32,000 bases of DNA, from assembly GCF_019203185.1 (NCBI RefSeq), contig NZ_CP078093.1, positions 2,700,389 through 2,732,388 on the forward strand. The letters run 5' to 3'. Origin of the DNA: Crassaminicella indica (GTDB taxonomy: Bacteria; Bacillota; Clostridia; Peptostreptococcales; Thermotaleaceae). This document shows positions 21,888 to 32,000 of this stretch, piece by piece. Each line of letters opens with the position of its first letter. The stretch's first letter is position 1. Under the pieces are notes generated by a model. The model saw nothing but the letters and a program-made list of their open reading frames with translations. It did no database searches and was not told where the DNA came from. A program made the position numbers and the translations under genes.

Positions 21888-23531
21888 TTACCACCTATAC
21901 TCATTATATCCACCTTCAGGACCATTGTCTTTGTCATACCATTTATCTAATAATTCAAACCAGTTACCTACTTTATTTATTTCTTTATTTATTCCTTCTT
22001 TACACCATTTTAATTTTCCATAACACATGTCTCCAAGCGCTAAATATTTAGTTAAATCAAGAGGGCTATACCAAAATTGAGATTCAAAATGTCTATGGTA
22101 AACGCGATTAGAATAAACTTCACTATCACCTGATGGGAAGAAAATAGATAATCCATTTTTACCATCCTTAAATCCATCATAATCTTCTCCCCCATAAGAA
22201 TAGAGAATCATATCATCTACTCTATCCATAAGAGTTTGAGATTTACTATAGATATTCGATAAATTTGTTATAAGAATATCTTCATTTTGATTATATATCA
22301 CATCATAAACAGCAGTCTGTTGTTTTTCTATATATACTTCATTCATAACAGTATTAGGTTGTTTTTCATTATATACTTCATCCGCAACAGTTTTTGTGAA
22401 TTTATCACTATATTTTATTTCTTTTGCAAAATCATATAAATCAAATAATGGATAAAAAAGTTGACTAATTATATTATTCGAATAAAAATAATGCATAATT
22501 TTAGGATTACTTATGTTCCCTCTTAATTCTTCGATTTTTTGTTTCTCATCCTCAATAGCAACAACAAGACCATCTACTGCATTTTTAACATCTTTTACTT
22601 TGGATAAGTCATAACAAGACAAAGTTTGATTTGTAACAATATTTTTACAAGAATCTCTCTGTTCTTCAACGATGATTGCACCAATTTGAGCATTTGTTAT
22701 AGTTTTAGGAGAATAATATTTTTCATATCCCCCCAAAGTTGAATCCTTTTCATTATTGTGTCCATCTTTAGTTTGTAATCTGTTTAGAATCTTATCATAT
22801 TTCCAACCTTGTTCCCATTCAGCTGTAGCACAGCCCACCATAATATCAGCTTCAAATCCACCATTTCCTTTATAAAATTGATAAGCAAACTCTACATTTC
22901 CCATGTAGCAAGCATCTAAACCTAAAACATCTACAGATTGTTCTTTAGTTAGTACATCAGAAATCTCTCCCGTATATAAAGCATCATATCCATTTGTTTC
23001 ATCTGTACATACCATTTTTCTTTTTTCGTTTTTAGGATCTTTTCTTGGTCCTCCTCCATGATTAGAAAGAATCAATACATATTTATCAGCTGGGTATTTT
23101 TCTTTACAATAATCAATAAAATTTTTTAGTGTGTAAGCATCCCCCATATTAGCTTCAAATGTTGTAAAAATTGTACTTATTTTAGGAAATTGTTTTCCAC
23201 CATCTAACCTTTTAACTTCATTTGGATTGATCTTATATAATCTTGTATCATCAAAATCTTCTCCAAATACCTCTTGATCAGAACTATAGCTTTCATGTCG
23301 GTCTACTAACGCAATCAGATTAATTTCTTTAGTAACACCTTTTTTCATTTCTACAACGTCACTTAACAAATCTGGTTCAAGATCATTATCTGCATCGCAA
23401 TAGTACATTATAGTGATAGGTTTTTTTTCTACTAATAATTCTTTTGCATAAGCAAAGTTAAGATTTCCTAAAACTAGACATATCAATAGAACAACGGTCA
23501 ATATAGCATTATTTTTTTTATTTTTAATCAT
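21888..23531 (-). CDS. secreted C11-family (clostripain-like) cysteine peptidase
   Basis: Start set at MIKNKKNN (23531, RBS GAAAGGA). Signal peptide ..LGNLNFAYA|KE. C11 layout MYYCDADNDLE..., catalytic His in LILSNHGGG and catalytic Cys in LGLDACYMG. Confidence 0.8.
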   Translation of the reverse strand: MIKNKKNNAILTVVLLICLVLGNLNFAYAKELLVEKKPITIMYYCDADNDLEPDLLSDVVEMKKGVTKEINLIALVDRHESYSSDQEVFGEDFDDTRLYKINPNEVKRLDGGKQFPKISTIFTTFEANMGDAYTLKNFIDYCKEKYPADKYVLILSNHGGGPRKDPKNEKRKMVCTDETNGYDALYTGEISDVLTKEQSVDVLGLDACYMGNVEFAYQFYKGNGGFEADIMVGCATAEWEQGWKYDKILNRLQTKDGHNNEKDSTLGGYEKYYSPKTITNAQIGAIIVEEQRDSCKNIVTNQTLSCYDLSKVKDVKNAVDGLVVAIEDEKQKIEELRGNISNPKIMHYFYSNNIISQLFYPLFDLYDFAKEIKYSDKFTKTVADEVYNEKQPNTVMNEVYIEKQQTAVYDVIYNQNEDILITNLSNIYSKSQTLMDRVDDMILYSYGGEDYDGFKDGKNGLSIFFPSGDSEVYSNRVYHRHFESQFWYSPLDLTKYLALGDMCYGKLKWCKEGINKEINKVGNWFELLDKWYDKDNGPEGGYNEYRW

Positions 23532-24646: not shown

Positions 24647-26437
24647 TTAAGACTGTTCATAGTCGCCTATTTGGATATTATATAATGTACTATAAATTCC
24701 TTCTAAATTCATGAGCTCTTCATGGCTTCCACTTTCCTCAATTCTTCCTTTTTCTAAAACAATTATATTAGCAGCTTGTTTAATAAAATTATTAAATCTG
24801 TGAGCTACAATAATACCTATTTTCTCTTTCAACAAATCATTATACATACTAGATAAATTGTACTCTGATATAGCATCTAATGCTGCATTAGGTTCATCTA
24901 AGATGTATATATCAGCTTCCTTTGCAAACGCTCTTGCTAAAGCAACTCTTTGCCACTGTCCAATAGATATTTGTTTACCATTATCAAACCAATACCCCAA
25001 CTGAACATCTATGTTTTTAGGTTCATTCTTTGTCAAATCTTGCAAGTTAAATCTATTACTAATTTCATTAATACGATTATCGTCTCGAATAATATCTAAA
25101 TTTCCATAGCCTATATTTTCTCTAAAAGTAGTTTCGAATTTAGCAAAATCTTGAAATAAAGTTCCTATTCTTCTTTGTAATACTGATTTATCTATTTCTT
25201 TCATATCAATTCCATTTATGTATACACTGCCTTCATAATCATCATAGAATCCCATCATAATTTTTATTAGAGTAGTTTTTCCACTTCCGTTTTTTCCTAC
25301 TATTGCAATAAATTCCCCTTTCCTAATGGTTAAATTAATATCTTTTAATACATAATCCTCATCTTCTCTATATTTATAATATAGATGTTCTATTTTTATT
25401 TCGTTTATTTGATCTATCTCTTTTAGAGTTGTTACTTTTCTTTTGTTTTTTAAATTCAAAAAAACATACAATTGATCTATAAAAATACTTTGTTTTTGTA
25501 TACTTGCAAACGACTCTAGAATTTTTTCAATATAAGATGTTAAATCTATAATCGTTCTAGTATAAGTTATAACATTTCCAATTAAAATTTCACCAATATA
25601 TCCGATATAAAGAACATAAGCAAACATAAGTGAGCTTAAAATATGTTCAAATATCCCAACAATTGATAAATATACTATAGATTGCTTTGCAATCTTTAAA
25701 TCTTGTAAATTAAAACTATTAATATAGTTTTTATATTTAGTTATAAAATAATCAAACAATTGATATGCTTTTAATTCTTTATAGTTCTCTCCATTCTTTA
25801 TAAGAAAATCATAGTACCATGCTTGTCTCTCCTGATTAGTTCTCGCTTTTATTATTTTAAATTCTTTTATGTTTATATTTTTAACTACAAAATATTTAAC
25901 AATTGGAACTATCAAAACAATTATAACAATCCAAGCTTTAAAATAAAGTAAAATAATTACATATGAAAACATAGTAATCAAAGTACTTGAAATATTAACA
26001 AACATGTTAAAATATGATAATAGCTTACCTTCACTTTCATATTGTGCTCGTCTAATTATGTCATAAGTTTCACTATTTTCATAATCCTTCAGCTCAAGAT
26101 TTGTTACTTTTCGTAATACTTCCTCTTTAATTATTAAATTAAATTTTAAACTAAACTTAGTATTAAAATATCCTACTAAACTTTGAAATATAGTTTGAAA
26201 TAAATCCACCCCTGCATAAAGAGCTATATAAACAAATACTTGTCTTATATTTTTTATTCCAAGTTGTATTAGATTTATAATTTTCTGCATTAATAGTAAA
26301 GAAACGGTAGGAAGTATACCCGTTACTATCGTAGAAATTAAAGTTACAGCAAAATATCTCTTGTCTACTTTATATATATACTTTATTGTTTTAATTAAGT
26401 TTTCCCAAATATTAGTAGTTGTTTCTTCTGGATTCAT
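24647..26437 (-). CDS. lanT: ABC exporter, fused TMD-NBD half-transporter (LanT-like, no C39 peptidase domain)
   Basis: Start set at MNPEETT (26437, RBS AGGAGA). Six predicted TM helices. Walker A GKNGSGKTT, signature SIGQWQRVALARA, Walker B IYILDEPNAALD. Same strand as, and contiguous with, lanC once the IS is removed. Confidence 0.7.
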   Translation of the reverse strand: MNPEETTTNIWENLIKTIKYIYKVDKRYFAVTLISTIVTGILPTVSLLLMQKIINLIQLGIKNIRQVFVYIALYAGVDLFQTIFQSLVGYFNTKFSLKFNLIIKEEVLRKVTNLELKDYENSETYDIIRRAQYESEGKLLSYFNMFVNISSTLITMFSYVIILLYFKAWIVIIVLIVPIVKYFVVKNINIKEFKIIKARTNQERQAWYYDFLIKNGENYKELKAYQLFDYFITKYKNYINSFNLQDLKIAKQSIVYLSIVGIFEHILSSLMFAYVLYIGYIGEILIGNVITYTRTIIDLTSYIEKILESFASIQKQSIFIDQLYVFLNLKNKRKVTTLKEIDQINEIKIEHLYYKYREDEDYVLKDINLTIRKGEFIAIVGKNGSGKTTLIKIMMGFYDDYEGSVYINGIDMKEIDKSVLQRRIGTLFQDFAKFETTFRENIGYGNLDIIRDDNRINEISNRFNLQDLTKNEPKNIDVQLGYWFDNGKQISIGQWQRVALARAFAKEADIYILDEPNAALDAISEYNLSSMYNDLLKEKIGIIVAHRFNNFIKQAANIIVLEKGRIEESGSHEELMNLEGIYSTLYNIQIGDYEQS

Positions 26438-26579
26438 AATTATTCTCCTATTCAACTAAATACATTAATATAAGTTGTTCATCTTATATTATAATAGTAT
26501 GCAAATTATCGTGTTTTGTATCTACCAACAATTATACTTAGTCCTACTAACTAAGTACAATAATTTTTAATGTGCTACC

Positions 26580-27840
26580 TGGGCTTATGTCAATATTTTG
26601 AACACAAAAAGTTTAACAGATTAAAAAGCTGACTTTAAATTATTCTCAAATTGGTCGGGAGTGATATAACCAATACTACTATGTATTCTATTTCTGTTGT
26701 ATCAAGACTCAATGAATTCAAAGATAGATTTTTTAGCTTCATTAAAATCTCTATACTTTTTATGATTAACTTCTTCTTTTTTTAATATTGAATGAGATGA
26801 TTCTATTGGAGCATTATCATAGGGATTACCCTTACTGCTAAAAGAAATAGATAATCCTAGACTTTTAACCTTTTTCATATATTCATAGCTAGTGTATTGG
26901 CTTCCTCGGTCAAAGTGAATGATAACTTGACCATTAGGTCTTTGGTTAAAATAAGCATTTTCTAAAGCTTTTATTGTTAATTCAGTAGTGATAGATTTAG
27001 AGAATGAGTAACCTATGATTTTTCTTGTATATAAATCCATTATTGATGCTAGGTAACACCAACCATCTTTAATAGTATAAATATAGGTAATATCAGCTAC
27101 CCACTTTTGATTTATACAAGTAGCTGTAAAGTCTCTTTTGATGATGTTTTTACCTATTATTTCATTACACTTAGAAGAATAATACTTAAATTTTTTATGA
27201 ACAATTGATCTAATACCTAGCTTTTTCATTAACCTTTATGTTCTTTTTAGACTTACTGACCATCCACGAGATTTTAGTATTTGTCTAATTTTAGGAGCAC
27301 CGTAACGCTTTTTACTATCTAGATAAACAGACATAATGGCTTTTTAGTTTTTCATTTTCAAGAGATCTGTTAGATTTTTCTCTGGACCTACGGTCATAGT
27401 AAGTGCTACGAGGTAGTTCTAAAATTTTACATAACAATTTAATATTATGTTTTTTCTTATTATCTTCGATAAAAGAAATTAATGATTGAATATCTATTTT
27501 TTCGTGAATATGGTTAAAGCCTTTTTTAAGATTTCAATTTCCTCCTTGATCTTTGCATTTTCCTTTTTCATCTCAGCTATATCTTTAGGAGTAATAGGTT
27601 CTTGATCTTCTACTTTAATTACTTTGTTTTCTTTAATCCATTTATAGATTGTTGTTCTAGTTACACCATATTCATGTTCTAACTCTGATACTGAACTACC
27701 AGAGTTATATAATTCAATAATTGTTTGTTTAAAATCTTCGTTGTATCTTTTACCATTAGTATTCATACGGACACACCCTTTCATCTAATTATAGTTTATC
27801 TTGTTAAACTAAGTGTGTCCATGATTCTATACTAACACCA
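26580..27840 (-). mobile_element. IS3-family insertion sequence (1261 bp), orfA intact, orfB inactivated
   Basis: Termini TGGGCTTATGTCAATATTTTGAACAC (26580) and ...ACTAACACCA (27840). Flanked by direct ACC (26577-26579 and 27841-27843). orfB has a premature stop before MKKLGIRS and a TGG-to-TGA nonsense at 26702 (FEFIES*YNRNRIHSSIGYITP). Confidence 0.85.
27494..27766 (-). CDS. IS3-family OrfA (HTH transposase subunit)
   Basis: MNTNGKRYNEDFKQTIIELYNSGSSVSELEHEYGVTRTTIYKWIKE plus a leucine-zipper-like tail. Start at 27766 follows AAAGGGTG. Confidence 0.75.
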   Translation of the reverse strand: MNTNGKRYNEDFKQTIIELYNSGSSVSELEHEYGVTRTTIYKWIKENKVIKVEDQEPITPKDIAEMKKENAKIKEEIEILKKALTIFTKK

Positions 27841-27973: not shown

Positions 27974-29272
27974 TTAATCGACCATTAATACTCTTCCATA
28001 CTCCATGCTTTCATGAATAACACCTAAAAGTGATAGTACAACTCCCATTGCTCCTTGTAATAAAGACAAATCATTTTCAAAATGATTTTTAATGATTTGA
28101 TTCATATCATAGCTAGTATCACTATTCTTATTAAATATATCAAGAATTGCATTTATATCTTTCTCAATAGTTTTAACAAAACGTTCATCTTTGGTATCCC
28201 TATAAGCCATCATTCTTATGCATAAAACACTAGAATACCCATGACATAAAATTGTTTCAAATAAATTATATCGATTTACAGGTTGATTGATTATATTAAT
28301 CAGATCTTTTTTATAAGTTTCCTCCTTTTGCGTATAACCCATATATTGAGCTGCTTTTTGCAACCCTCTTGCTATTCCTGTGTTACCATAACACCAACTT
28401 GCCATGGGAAGTCTTAAATTATCTGAATACTGTCCTTTGATAAAATTTTCAAAAGATAATTGCGTAGGCCATGCAGCAATATCATTACGGTATACTTTAA
28501 ATTGATCATAAATATCAAACAATGTGCTAATTGCATTTTCAATTCCTTCTACTCTTATTTCTTTATTATGTGCTTTAGTTAATGCCACTAATGGTCCTAA
28601 CATTCCATGAGATAAACCAAAATTAATATTTCCATTTGGAAACTCTAATTGTTCATCTTCTCTAGATAAATTTTCCTTAATAATATGAAAATTTATAATC
28701 GAATTATCCATATGCTCATGATAGTTAGTTAATTCAATAAGATATTTAATTAATTTTTCTAATTGCAAATTTTCCTCTAAATTCCATTCAAAATCTAGTA
28801 AAAAGTATACAAAACCAGATACTCCAGCAATAACATCATAATCGTTCATAAAAACATCATTTTTTCTTCTTAATCTTTCCACAAACTCAACAGCTTGCTC
28901 TAGAAAAAACTTATTTAATGTATTAGAGAATTTTGATAGATTTCCAGTTTTTTTATTAAATAAACTAACACAGAAACATTTATATCCAAATCCACCAATC
29001 ATACCAAGATTTTTTTCTGAAATACCATATGTTTCTATTTCCTGTTTCAATCCTTTACATAAGTCATATCCCATTTGTTCCCATTTATCTTTATTATCTA
29101 TTAGTGGATAGATCTCCGAAATTATCATTAAAAAATCACTATTATATATAGGATTTATAATTTCTAAATCATATTGTTCTTCAATGTATTGAAAAAAGCA
29201 ATTTAAAAACTCATTAACCCTATCCCTTGTATTTTCTGAAATATGTATATAATTATTTGTATCACCTATCAT
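27974..29272 (-). CDS. lanC: LanC lanthipeptide cyclase (class I)
   Basis: Zinc-ligand and active-site motifs GLSHGMLG, SWCYGNTGIARG and LCHGYSSVL, in the canonical order and spacing. The start overlaps the upstream gene stop by 11 nt. Confidence 0.9.
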   Translation of the reverse strand: MIGDTNNYIHISENTRDRVNEFLNCFFQYIEEQYDLEIINPIYNSDFLMIISEIYPLIDNKDKWEQMGYDLCKGLKQEIETYGISEKNLGMIGGFGYKCFCVSLFNKKTGNLSKFSNTLNKFFLEQAVEFVERLRRKNDVFMNDYDVIAGVSGFVYFLLDFEWNLEENLQLEKLIKYLIELTNYHEHMDNSIINFHIIKENLSREDEQLEFPNGNINFGLSHGMLGPLVALTKAHNKEIRVEGIENAISTLFDIYDQFKVYRNDIAAWPTQLSFENFIKGQYSDNLRLPMASWCYGNTGIARGLQKAAQYMGYTQKEETYKKDLINIINQPVNRYNLFETILCHGYSSVLCIRMMAYRDTKDERFVKTIEKDINAILDIFNKNSDTSYDMNQIIKNHFENDLSLLQGAMGVVLSLLGVIHESMEYGRVLMVD

Positions 29273-30023
29273 TATAAAATTCCCCCTCTTTTTTTAATCT
29301 TTGCATTTTTTTATTTTTAATAGCAAATTCTTGAAATGACTTACATTCTTTAATCCATTTCTGATCCCAATAATTCCATTCATACTCTAGTTGCCCAACA
29401 GCTATTTGTTTATCAATGAGAATACTATAATAATTTTGATAAAATCCAAAGTAATCTTCCAAAAACTTATTTGAGTATCCATAATTATTTTGTATAGAAT
29501 TTAAAAATTCAGCTGCACTTGTTTCTATAAACTCTTTAATTTTATCTCTCTTTTTAATAAAAACATAATTGCCTAAATTCTTAATACCTATCGACTCTTG
29601 TATTTCACACATATGTTCTTTTACAAACTCTTGTCCACTACTCATTGTAGTAGTTAATGTAAATCCTAATTTGCCAGCATAATTCATTAAATGGGCTGAA
29701 CTAAATATTCTATCCTCAAAAGTTTTCATAATTCCCGATATATTGTTAAAATAAACGGGACTAGCAAAAAACACAATGTCTGATTCTAATAATTTTTTTC
29801 TTATCTTAAAAAAGTCATCATGCTCATCTACTAAGCAAAATCCATTATCTAAACAATTTGAACATCCAAGGCAATAATTTATTTTATAATCTCTTAAACA
29901 AATTATCTCCGAGTCATAACTCGTATCTAAAATCTGAATTTTTTCCAAAATTCTTTTCGTTAACAAATTTGTAATAGAATTATTGTTATTACTACCAACA
30001 ACAGCTACTATTTTACATTTCAC
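29262..30023 (-). CDS. flavodoxin-fold NAD(P)H:FMN oxidoreductase-like protein (candidate lanthipeptide tailoring enzyme); not HFCD/LanD-like
   Basis: GTG start with AAGGAAG RBS. KIVAVVGSNNNNSIT (phosphate loop), CLGCSNCLDNGFC, DIVFFASPVYFNNISGIMKTFEDR are typical of the FMN_red/flavodoxin_2 family. About 100-aa C-terminal extension of unknown function. Confidence 0.7.
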   Translation of the reverse strand: MKCKIVAVVGSNNNNSITNLLTKRILEKIQILDTSYDSEIICLRDYKINYCLGCSNCLDNGFCLVDEHDDFFKIRKKLLESDIVFFASPVYFNNISGIMKTFEDRIFSSAHLMNYAGKLGFTLTTTMSSGQEFVKEHMCEIQESIGIKNLGNYVFIKKRDKIKEFIETSAAEFLNSIQNNYGYSNKFLEDYFGFYQNYYSILIDKQIAVGQLEYEWNYWDQKWIKECKSFQEFAIKNKKMQRLKKEGEFYNDR

Positions 30024-30151
30024 TATATCATCACTTCCTTATTACTACATGATTTTTTTAATAATTAATTTAGTAATAGTACATCCAAATGTTGTATGTG
30101 ATGTAATACTATATCTATTTATGGTTATTTTTTTTACTCCTTTTATTTGCA

Positions 30152-30221: not shown

Positions 30222-30425
30222 TTAGCAGCGTGTACCTTCTCCTGGTTTAGCAGCATTACGACAAGCTGTCATATCACTTGGTGAACAATGAGTTGAAATT
30301 TCAGAACAATGTCTTTCTGATATATAAGTATAACAAAAAACATTAGCCGTCCACGCACGGCTAGTATTTTTATTATCAGTTTTAACTTTCTTTAAATTCA
30401 AATCAAAATCTTTAAATTTACCCAC
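30222..30425 (-). CDS. lanA: class I lanthipeptide precursor LanA2 (67 aa)
   Basis: GTG start with GAAGGAGAGA RBS. Leader MGKFKDFDLNLKKVKTDNKNTSR contains an FDLNL (FNLD-type) box at about -17. Core AWTANVFCYTYISERHCSEISTHCSPSDMTACRNAAKPGEGTRC has 5 Cys and 11 Ser/Thr. Confidence 0.85.
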   Translation of the reverse strand: MGKFKDFDLNLKKVKTDNKNTSRAWTANVFCYTYISERHCSEISTHCSPSDMTACRNAAKPGEGTRC

Positions 30426-30477: not shown

Positions 30478-30684
30478 TTAGCAGCGTGTACCTTCTCCTG
30501 GCTTAGCAGCATTACGACAAGCTGTCATATCACTTGGTGAACAATGAGTTGAAGGATCAGAACAATACTTTCTTGATAAAACAGTATAGCAAGTAAGTGG
30601 ATTCATCGTCCAGTTACGAGCAGTATTTTTATTATCAGTTTTAACTTTCTTTAAATTCAAATCAAAATCTTTGAATTTACCCAT
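30478..30684 (-). CDS. lanA: class I lanthipeptide precursor LanA1 (68 aa)
   Basis: ATG start with AAGGGGGA RBS. Leader MGKFKDFDLNLKKVKTDNKNTAR. Core NWTMNPLTCYTVLSRKYCSDPSTHCSPSDMTACRNAAKPGEGTRC has 5 Cys and 11 Ser/Thr. Confidence 0.85.
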   Translation of the reverse strand: MGKFKDFDLNLKKVKTDNKNTARNWTMNPLTCYTVLSRKYCSDPSTHCSPSDMTACRNAAKPGEGTRC

Positions 30685-30780: not shown

Positions 30781-32000
30781 TTATTTTCTTTTTGTATACT
30801 TCCACTTTTCTATTAAATCATGTAAAGAATGTCTTATGATTGATAAACATTTTCCTTCGTATGCTGTATCACCAATCATACGATTGCAATACATATGATT
30901 CATAGAAAATATAATCTCTTTTTTGATATTTGTTGTTTTTTTCTTTTCAATCTGCTTTTCTAACTGTTTTTTGAATTCAAATAACATTAGCTGTCTTTTT
31001 TTATATACTTCTATTATTTTTAATAATCTTTTATCAATTTTTTCAACTTCTCCTTTTAATATGTATTCTGCGATTCTAAGATAATTTATCCTTTCTTTCT
31101 TAAATTCATCTCTATATTTATTTCTCAAATTCTCTTCATCTAAGATTTCAAGCAATTCAAATTCATCATGAGTTAGCTCTTTTAATACCGATATCATACC
31201 AACCATATATAACAGTTCTTTATCCTTTTCATTATCTAAATCAAATGAATTTAATATATTAATTACAAAAATGCTATCCGCATAAAAAAATTGTTCCGCA
31301 TATTCTATTAATTCTAATCCACCATATCTATTCACTTCTCTTTCGTATACATCAAATATAGTTCTATTAATTAAACGATTTTTTTGCAATTCAAAAATCC
31401 AAGACTTAATTCTATGTAATTTATTTAATGCTATATTTTCATTCTCAAATTTAAATCTTAGTCGTAGATGTTTTCCATTCTCATAATATCTAAGAAAAAA
31501 GAATTTCTCTAAATCTAGATCATCTAACAAACATGGTAATTCTTTTGTTAATAATTCATTTTCTTTATCTCCTAATCCATATAATTTCATATAAATCCAA
31601 CCATGGTCTCCTAAAGAAAAACGTTGACTCTTGTTTTGAATCATCCTATTGTTTTCTACAAAATCCTCTTTTATAGTCGATAAAAGTATTTTTTTATTTT
31701 CTTCATGTTGTATGAATGAAAAAACAAATTCTGCCATATAATTATTCTGGTCTAAATCCTCTACAATGGGATTGCTAAACATTTCAGTTTCGTGTAAATT
31801 CAATTCACCATTCTTCTTAACAGATGAATATATAATATCTAAGAACTCTTCATGTTTTAAATCAACTAATATTCGATGGTCTCCTTCACACAAACATACA
31901 TAGTCATCAATTTTATATTGGTGAATGACTTTATCAAAGCTTTTTTTGAACTTTTCTAAACTTTTCATATCAAAGTTCTCACTACTAAAATTCCAACTTT
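30781..32000 (-). CDS. lanB: LanB lanthipeptide dehydratase, C-terminal ~406 aa (end of glutamylation domain plus glutamate-elimination domain); 5' part outside window
   Basis: The frame stays open upstream of the track's first Met (..SWNFSSENFDMKSLEKF..) to the window edge. Lant_dehydr_C-type motifs GWIYMKLYG, FFFLRYYENGKHLRLRF, YEREVNRYGG, AEQFFYADS. Confidence 0.9.
   Translation of the reverse strand, partial: SWNFSSENFDMKSLEKFKKSFDKVIHQYKIDDYVCLCEGDHRILVDLKHEEFLDIIYSSVKKNGELNLHETEMFSNPIVEDLDQNNYMAEFVFSFIQHEENKKILLSTIKEDFVENNRMIQNKSQRFSLGDHGWIYMKLYGLGDKENELLTKELPCLLDDLDLEKFFFLRYYENGKHLRLRFKFENENIALNKLHRIKSWIFELQKNRLINRTIFDVYEREVNRYGGLELIEYAEQFFYADSIFVINILNSFDLDNEKDKELLYMVGMISVLKELTHDEFELLEILDEENLRNKYRDEFKKERINYLRIAEYILKGEVEKIDKRLLKIIEVYKKRQLMLFEFKKQLEKQIEKKKTTNIKKEIIFSMNHMYCNRMIGDTAYEGKCLSIIRHSLHDLIEKWKYTKRK

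Follow-up and report, generated by a model that had tools for sequence, protein, structure and literature searches.

A LanC-coupled, probably iron-sulfur flavoprotein with LanJB-like features in a class I lanthipeptide cluster of Crassaminicella indica

Among the flavoproteins of lanthipeptide biosynthesis, the LanJB enzymes (CrnJ of carnolysin and BsjJB of bicereucin) have been assigned to Pfam family PF03358 (PMC7794033, PMC7268733), and later papers, including PMC11519912, report D-residues formed by reduction of dehydro residues only for lanthipeptide classes II and V. Walker et al. 2020 (PMC7268733) noted genes for flavin mononucleotide (FMN) reductases in class I clusters at a time when D-amino acids had been seen only in class II, and considered that such enzymes might do something new. 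Here we analyzed one such gene in a 32,000-nt window of the Crassaminicella indica genome (contig NZ_CP078093.1, positions 2,700,389 to 2,732,388; "the window" denotes this whole stretch), where it lies in a class I cluster between the precursor gene lanA2 and the cyclase gene lanC. In our judgment the gene probably encodes a LanJB-like, probably iron-sulfur, FMN ene-reductase, which would work with LanC to turn some dehydroalanine and dehydrobutyrine (Dha/Dhb) residues of LanA1 and LanA2 into D-alanine and D-aminobutyrate (D-Ala/D-Abu). The fold, the family, the homology to a CrnJ orthologue, the linkage to LanC, the gene fusions and the conservation of the cysteine motif were computed here, and from them we infer the substrate, product, cofactors and electron donor. 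The presence of FMN-reductase genes in class I clusters was already known; added here are a separate LanC-coupled branch, natural fusions and a near-universal iron-sulfur-type motif.

The protein matched Pfam FMN_red (PF03358) over residues 4−156 (E 5e-19), with a weaker, sub-threshold match to Flavodoxin_2, and it contained the segments KIVAVVGS, CLGCSNCLDNGFC and SPVYFNNISG..K.F.DR, all in agreement with the N-terminal FMN-reductase fold proposed in an earlier note made from the letters of this DNA alone. Profile and structure comparison also bore out the view of that note that the protein is not a decarboxylase of the HFCD (homo-oligomeric flavin-containing Cys decarboxylase) family. The HFCD enzymes of the LanD type (EpiD, MrsD) likewise use a flavin to tailor lanthipeptides with a Cys at the end of the core, but had no detected sequence or fold similarity to the window flavoprotein: no PF02441 match (HFCD/Flavoprotein, the EpiD/MrsD family) was obtained even at E≤10, and EpiD/MrsD-type chains were absent from the top 50 Foldseek matches, all 50 being of the FMN-reductase or quinone-reductase type. 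An HFCD decarboxylase identity was rejected on these grounds.

An AlphaFold2 model built on 18 relatives (mean predicted local distance difference test score, pLDDT, 90.4; predicted template modelling score, pTM, 0.88) found its top Foldseek match over the whole chain in the FMN-bound structure of SP1951 from Streptococcus pneumoniae (E 2e-17, template modelling scores 0.78/0.85, 236 columns), with generic FMN, quinone and azo reductases following at E ~1e-9 to 1e-10, seven orders of magnitude behind. SP1951 (PDB 1SQS, and 2OYS with FMN), to which its depositors assigned no function, was also detected by sequence over residues 4−237 (E 9e-14 with the protein, E 4e-30 with the family profile), and at 26% identity it is the closest solved structure, with an alignment that extends over the full length, C-terminal subdomain included. 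The last 97 residues, rich in Tyr and Trp, which the earlier note had left as an unexplained extension, turned out to form a conserved helical subdomain that occurs throughout the family and is seen in the crystal structure of SP1951 as well; generic relatives aligned only with residues 1 to about 110 of the flavoprotein. The second-best PDB relative was the flavone reductase FLR (PDB 7D38), an FMN ene-reductase acting on an alpha,beta-unsaturated carbonyl, in which a C-terminal tail builds the substrate pocket and which, according to its authors, is unable to use NAD(P)H directly. FLR has the same fold and Cys residues at equivalent positions and offers, by analogy, a mechanistic precedent for an ene-reductase role of the flavoprotein; it differs in acting on small molecules, in its unrelated tail and in that its similarity to the window protein is confined to the first ~105 residues.

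Relatives of LanJB were sought by genomic context. A translated search of plasmids matched 69 records, nine of which were inspected: in eight the homologue adjoined LanM (three from Bacillus cereus and one each from B. wiedmannii, Clostridium perfringens, Paraclostridium sordellii, C. estertheticum and Staphylococcus aureus), and in the remaining one, from C. botulinum, it belonged to a class I lanA-lanB-ABC-lanC-flavoprotein cluster (ABC, ATP-binding cassette transporter). An Erysipelotrichaceae genome provided a further LanM context, and among all contexts examined ten were of class II, with the homologue beside LanM. The cognate class II precursors had long hydrophobic Ser/Thr-rich cores with few Cys, none at all in C. 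perfringens, the type of substrate expected for Dha/Dhb reduction. Altogether, the 22 homologue contexts examined were without exception lanthipeptide clusters, which ties the homologues to peptides that are made on ribosomes and modified post-translationally (RiPPs), and a housekeeping reductase was on this account rejected as an identity for the full-length family.

A profile of the class II-linked proteins detected P0234, a Carnobacterium maltaromaticum protein encoded in a LanM-precursor-flavoprotein-LanT-S8 protease-precursor locus with cytolysin-like precursors, which by organism and synteny only would be the carnolysin cluster, with P0234 as the putative CrnJ orthologue. The window protein was 31% identical to P0234 over 196 residues (E 8e-21). 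With LanJB the window protein has in common the Pfam family, the overall length, the C-terminal helical extension with E215 and W219, the residues K100, D104, R105 and H111, and a place in lanthipeptide clusters with Ser/Thr-rich cores. Unlike LanJB, it is encoded in a class I (LanB/LanC) rather than a class II (LanM) cluster and is translationally coupled to LanC or, in relatives, fused to it. A literature search pairing PF03358 with lanthipeptide found no paper. The cluster on a plasmid of B. cereus BC-01 is a putative bicereucin-like one.

The relation between the window protein and the class II-linked proteins was addressed with a family profile, which gave 285 matches below 1e-30 among 1.84 billion representative proteins, and with two trees, the first (FastTree) comprising 173 proteins from the list of matches together with 10 named ones of verified context and 10 generic outgroups, and the second (IQ-TREE) 62 rows including the CrnJ orthologue. 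In the first tree the full-length family split into two groups, group A with the window protein and group B with every class II-linked protein and the C. botulinum class I protein. The second tree supported the split with a value of 98 in the Shimodaira-Hasegawa-like approximate likelihood ratio test (SH-aLRT) and paired the CrnJ orthologue with the S. aureus protein inside group B. The generic outgroups fell on both sides of the split and the tree gives no position for the root; the sole support for a monophyletic lanthipeptide-linked family, as set against generic iron-sulfur flavoproteins, is the C-terminal subdomain that its members have in common, and the tree lends none. The LanJB-like character that the earlier note had raised as a possibility thus stood insofar as the protein is homologous over its full length to flavoproteins of the CrnJ type, and failed insofar as it falls outside their branch, in a separate one coupled to LanC.

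This coupling was uniform. In all 12 group A loci examined (the window, Clostridium pascui, Tissierella simiarum, T. pigra, Clostridiaceae M8S5, Clostridioides sp. and six metagenomic contigs or metagenome-assembled genomes) the flavoprotein gene lay directly upstream of lanC in a LanB/LanC cluster, with junctions ranging from a 20-nt overlap to a 20-nt gap. Moreover, six group A representatives of 50%-identity clusters, less than 50% identical to one another, were single proteins of 615−675 aa in which an N-terminal FMN_red domain is joined to a C-terminal LANC_like domain. One fusion was verified: three contigs, from two samples, carried it in identical form, with lanB on one side and a precursor gene on the other. 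No description of flavoprotein-LanC fusions was found in the literature searched. Because such natural fusions exist, the flavoprotein and the cyclase are likely to act together, for which we regard the fusions as strong evidence. The C. pascui locus (L001, 9198−10756) has two tandem flavoprotein paralogues before lanC, 57% and 69% identical to the window protein; upstream of lanB, its cluster has a single precursor, an agrB/agrD-like pair and a LytTR two-component system.

Alignment of the two groups showed 18 positions conserved at 85% or more in both (G10, S16, G53, D69, P89, V90, Y91, G97, K100, D104, R105, H111, G117, G130, G146, F192, E215 and W219), E215 and W219 of the C-terminal subdomain reaching at least 92% in each branch, whereas only about five positions were specific to group A. 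The candidate active-site residues common to both branches are G10, S16, P89-V90-Y91, K100, D104, R105, H111, G146, E215 and W219, and this pattern fits a shared core chemistry of the two groups.

Four cysteines, C51, C54, C57 and C63, were invariant in group A (18 of 18 close relatives) and present in 92−99% of group B representatives, and the full CX2CX2CX3-8C pattern occurred in 171 of 184 family proteins. A compact CX2CX2CX5-7C motif defines the iron-sulfur flavoproteins (Isf) and is the presumed binding site of a [4Fe-4S] cluster (PMC3164229), and the four invariant cysteines of the window protein probably hold such a cluster. The CLGC..C segment cited in the earlier note was indeed present; it had been taken for a flavodoxin pattern, but is in fact part of this iron-sulfur-type CX2CX2CX5C motif. 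The Isf of anaerobes have a flavodoxin-like FMN core and the compact Cys motif at the same position as the window protein; they differ from it in their length of ~200 aa, without the C-terminal subdomain that makes up its 97-aa extension, and in having no link to RiPP clusters. Among named organisms the motif tracked oxygen tolerance. All four cysteines were kept in the window protein and in the Clostridium, Paraclostridium, Tissierella and Erysipelotrichaceae proteins, three of the four in the Bacillus proteins, one in the Carnobacterium CrnJ orthologue and none in the S. aureus protein or in SP1951. In this respect the family members studied so far appear atypical.

The two window cores have 10−12 Ser/Thr, depending on the leader end chosen, against 5 Cys, and both end in Cys, which agrees with the 11 Ser/Thr per 5 Cys counted in the earlier note. 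Group A precursors have a common FDLDL-type leader, often with Arg before the core. In four precursor sets (window, C. pascui, L094 and L099) a CSPSDM(T/K)xC module is followed by 9−12 residues and a terminal Cys. A terminal Cys is lacking from the precursors of Clostridiaceae M8S5 (ending in CLP/CIP), T. pigra (VVDE) and Clostridioides sp. (CGKKK), and also from that of the C. botulinum plasmid, a group B and class I context (TTTITL). The two carnolysin-type precursors, for which there is an enzyme of the CrnJ type and no decarboxylase, do end in Cys. A terminal Cys is therefore neither needed for the flavoprotein nor a sign of a missing decarboxylase, because some cognate precursors are without it and carnolysin-type precursors have it. 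Within the window, LanA1 and LanA2 (30222−30684, minus strand) agree throughout the leader and in the last 25 residues (STHCSPSDMTACRNAAKPGEGTRC); all their differences lie in the N-terminal half of the core, which gives the look of a variable head grafted on a fixed tail. The class II precursor of the C. perfringens plasmid pCP318-46 (L083, 5107−5295), adjoining LanM and a flavoprotein of the family, has many Ser/Thr and zero Cys and is a candidate for a linear D-amino-acid peptide.

These observations suggest a pathway in which LanB would dehydrate Ser and Thr of LanA1 and LanA2 and LanC would close the thioether rings. The overlap of the genes would supply the flavoprotein in a fixed ratio to LanC, probably in a complex with it. 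Reduced FMN would then deliver a hydride to the beta-carbon of some uncyclized Dha/Dhb residues, and protonation of the alpha-carbon would yield D-Ala or D-Abu, the C-terminal helical subdomain presumably shaping a peptide pocket over the flavin. The putative [4Fe-4S] cluster would re-reduce FMN with electrons of a low-potential donor, for example ferredoxin, in place of NAD(P)H or in addition to it.

Several points weigh against this pathway. D-amino acids of such origin have been demonstrated neither for the window branch nor for any class I lanthipeptide (PMC7268733, PMC11519912), and the window protein lies across an SH-aLRT 98 branch from the clade of CrnJ-type proteins, so that its function could have diverged. 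The CrnJ label of P0234 itself comes from organism and synteny, and BsjJB was not identifiable by name among the sequences, the cluster-member names of four Bacillus homologues giving generic annotations only. An excess of Ser/Thr over Cys is usual in class I peptides and proves nothing, while five of the first seven group A precursor sets end in Cys, four of them with the CSPSDM(T/K)xC...C module, which could point to a module-specific reaction. Finally, the cluster is riddled with insertion sequence (IS) elements.

The distance from the CrnJ-type enzymes, an adjacency to or fusion with LanC that is strict beyond mere presence in a cluster, and the CSPSDM(T/K)xC module with terminal Cys common to the window, C. 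pascui, L094 and L099 would all suit a flavoprotein that carries out with LanC a redox modification other than Dha/Dhb reduction, for instance a reaction on the C-terminal CSPSDMTxC...Cys module in which its terminal Cys is oxidized or decarboxylated by a non-HFCD route, or an undescribed reaction. We nevertheless hold this to be unlikely: the candidate active-site residues are identical in both branches, reductase activity is typical of FMN_red-fold enzymes, no similarity to HFCD proteins was seen by sequence or fold, and a terminal Cys is missing from the M8S5, T. pigra and Clostridioides sp. precursors and present in carnolysin-type precursors without any decarboxylase. Quite unlikely, in our estimate, is the more specific proposal that the LanC-coupled branch performs an undescribed redox step on the CSPSDMTxC...Cys module, complexed or fused with the cyclase and using an FMN/[4Fe-4S] pair.

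Loss of function is suggested by the IS3-type elements found upstream of lanB, in the interval separating lanC from the ABC gene and on the downstream side of the latter, and by the missing counterparts of the C. pascui regulator, CPBP-protease and TraX genes; the cluster could then be a decaying silent remnant and the gene without a current function, whatever its ancestral role. The lanB, both lanA, flavoprotein, lanC and ABC genes are all intact full-length open reading frames (ORFs) with conserved motifs, and we find decay of this kind improbable. Thousands of generic iron-sulfur flavoproteins have counterparts of the N-terminal 110 residues and of the Cys motif, and the same genome encodes a second, shorter paralogue; on this basis the protein might be a general iron-sulfur flavoprotein, acting in electron transfer or protection from oxidative stress, or a self-protection factor, with no part in peptide modification. 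A role of that sort is highly improbable in view of the 22 of 22 lanthipeptide contexts of the full-length relatives, the existence of LanC gene fusions and the C-terminal E215/W219 subdomain, which the lanthipeptide-linked family alone possesses, generic proteins being without it.

Should Dha/Dhb reduction by the LanC-coupled flavoproteins be confirmed, these enzymes could place D-residues in class I scaffolds. With two precursors, LanB, LanC and one flavoprotein, the window is a compact candidate for studying the role of class I FMN reductases, and the occurrence of natural fusions of reductase and cyclase implies that both operate as one unit. The iron-sulfur character of most members, if true, would explain a possible failure of heterologous aerobic assays and suggests a ferredoxin-type electron supply.

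The features of the locus are collected in Table 1. The gene order is lanB-lanA1-lanA2-flavoprotein-lanC-ABC in an IS-flanked cluster, and the ORF coordinates reproduced the position between lanA2 and lanC and the 11-nt overlap with lanC that the earlier note had described. The flavoprotein ORF of 253 codons begins at a GTG, the first start codon after an in-frame TAA. In DNA of the same genome beyond the window edge lanB is complete (1024 aa, Lant_dehydr_N and Lant_dehydr_C), and the next genes upstream of it are IS3-type transposase genes. Between the IS3-type bounds no other tailoring gene was present, as the note had held, and its assignment of the flavoprotein to the lanthipeptide pathway was likewise supported. 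On the 3′ side of lanC follow a decayed IS3 copy, the ABC transporter, another transposase remnant and a clostripain gene; the agr-type regulator, CPBP protease and TraX genes of the C. pascui cluster are missing from the window cluster. A terminator and promoter scan yielded nothing above shuffled expectation and marked no boundary of an operon in the interval from lanA2 to the flavoprotein gene.

Table 1. Coordinates of the flavoprotein gene, its domains and motifs, the surrounding cluster genes and the fused relatives.
Feature	Position	Strand	Remarks
Flavoprotein gene, LanJB-like iron-sulfur flavoprotein (putative)	29262..30023	-	253 aa, GTG start
Shine-Dalgarno AGGAAG	30034..30039	-	10 nt 5′ of flavoprotein GTG
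FMN_red (PF03358) core, residues 4-156	29556..30014	-	Pfam match
Compact CX2CX2CX5C motif CLGCSNCLDNGFC (C51, C54, C57, C63), putative [4Fe-4S] ligands	29835..29873	-	invariant in branch
C-terminal helical extension, residues 157-253; family-wide E215 and W219, branch motif SFQEFA	29265..29555	-	
lanC, 432 aa, LANC_like	27974..29272	-	start overlapped 11 nt by flavoprotein stop region
lanA2 precursor, 67 aa	30222..30425	-	
lanA1 precursor, 68 aa; same leader and final 25 residues as lanA2	30478..30684	-	
lanB, 3′ part; gene extends outside window	30781..32000	-	
ABC transporter, 602 aa, 78% identity to C. pascui cluster counterpart	24647..26455	-	
Decayed IS3-type element (HTH_Tnp_1 orfA, rve orfB fragments)	26702..27784	-	inserted between lanC and ABC gene
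FMN_red-LanC fusions P0090, P0091, P0095, P0097, P0098, P0102	L094 10001-12022, L095 458-2479		metagenomic class I clusters

Transposase genes, IS3-type and others and several of them broken, bound or interrupt the cluster (window 23665−24553, plus strand, and 26702−27784, minus strand; L089 4085−5235 and 6002−7279). The only terminator-like hairpin of the region, at 30344−30363, lies inside the lanA2 coding sequence and is probably due to chance (2 found, 0.8 expected). Just downstream of the cluster, at 21888−23570 on the minus strand, is a gene for a secreted clostripain, an Arg-specific C11 peptidase (TIGR02806, E 8e-160). The cluster is without LanP, and Arg directly precedes the likely core in both precursors (..NTAR|NW.. 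and ..NTSR|AW..) and in several relatives. The clostripain could serve as leader peptidase of the cluster; an IS remnant separating the gene from the cluster and related loci without clostripain speak against this. Far from the cluster, the same genome encodes the second protein of the iron-sulfur flavoprotein type (G000:C1:2232592-2232891, L088), a paralogue of ~204 aa that lacks the C-terminal subdomain and carries the Cys motif.

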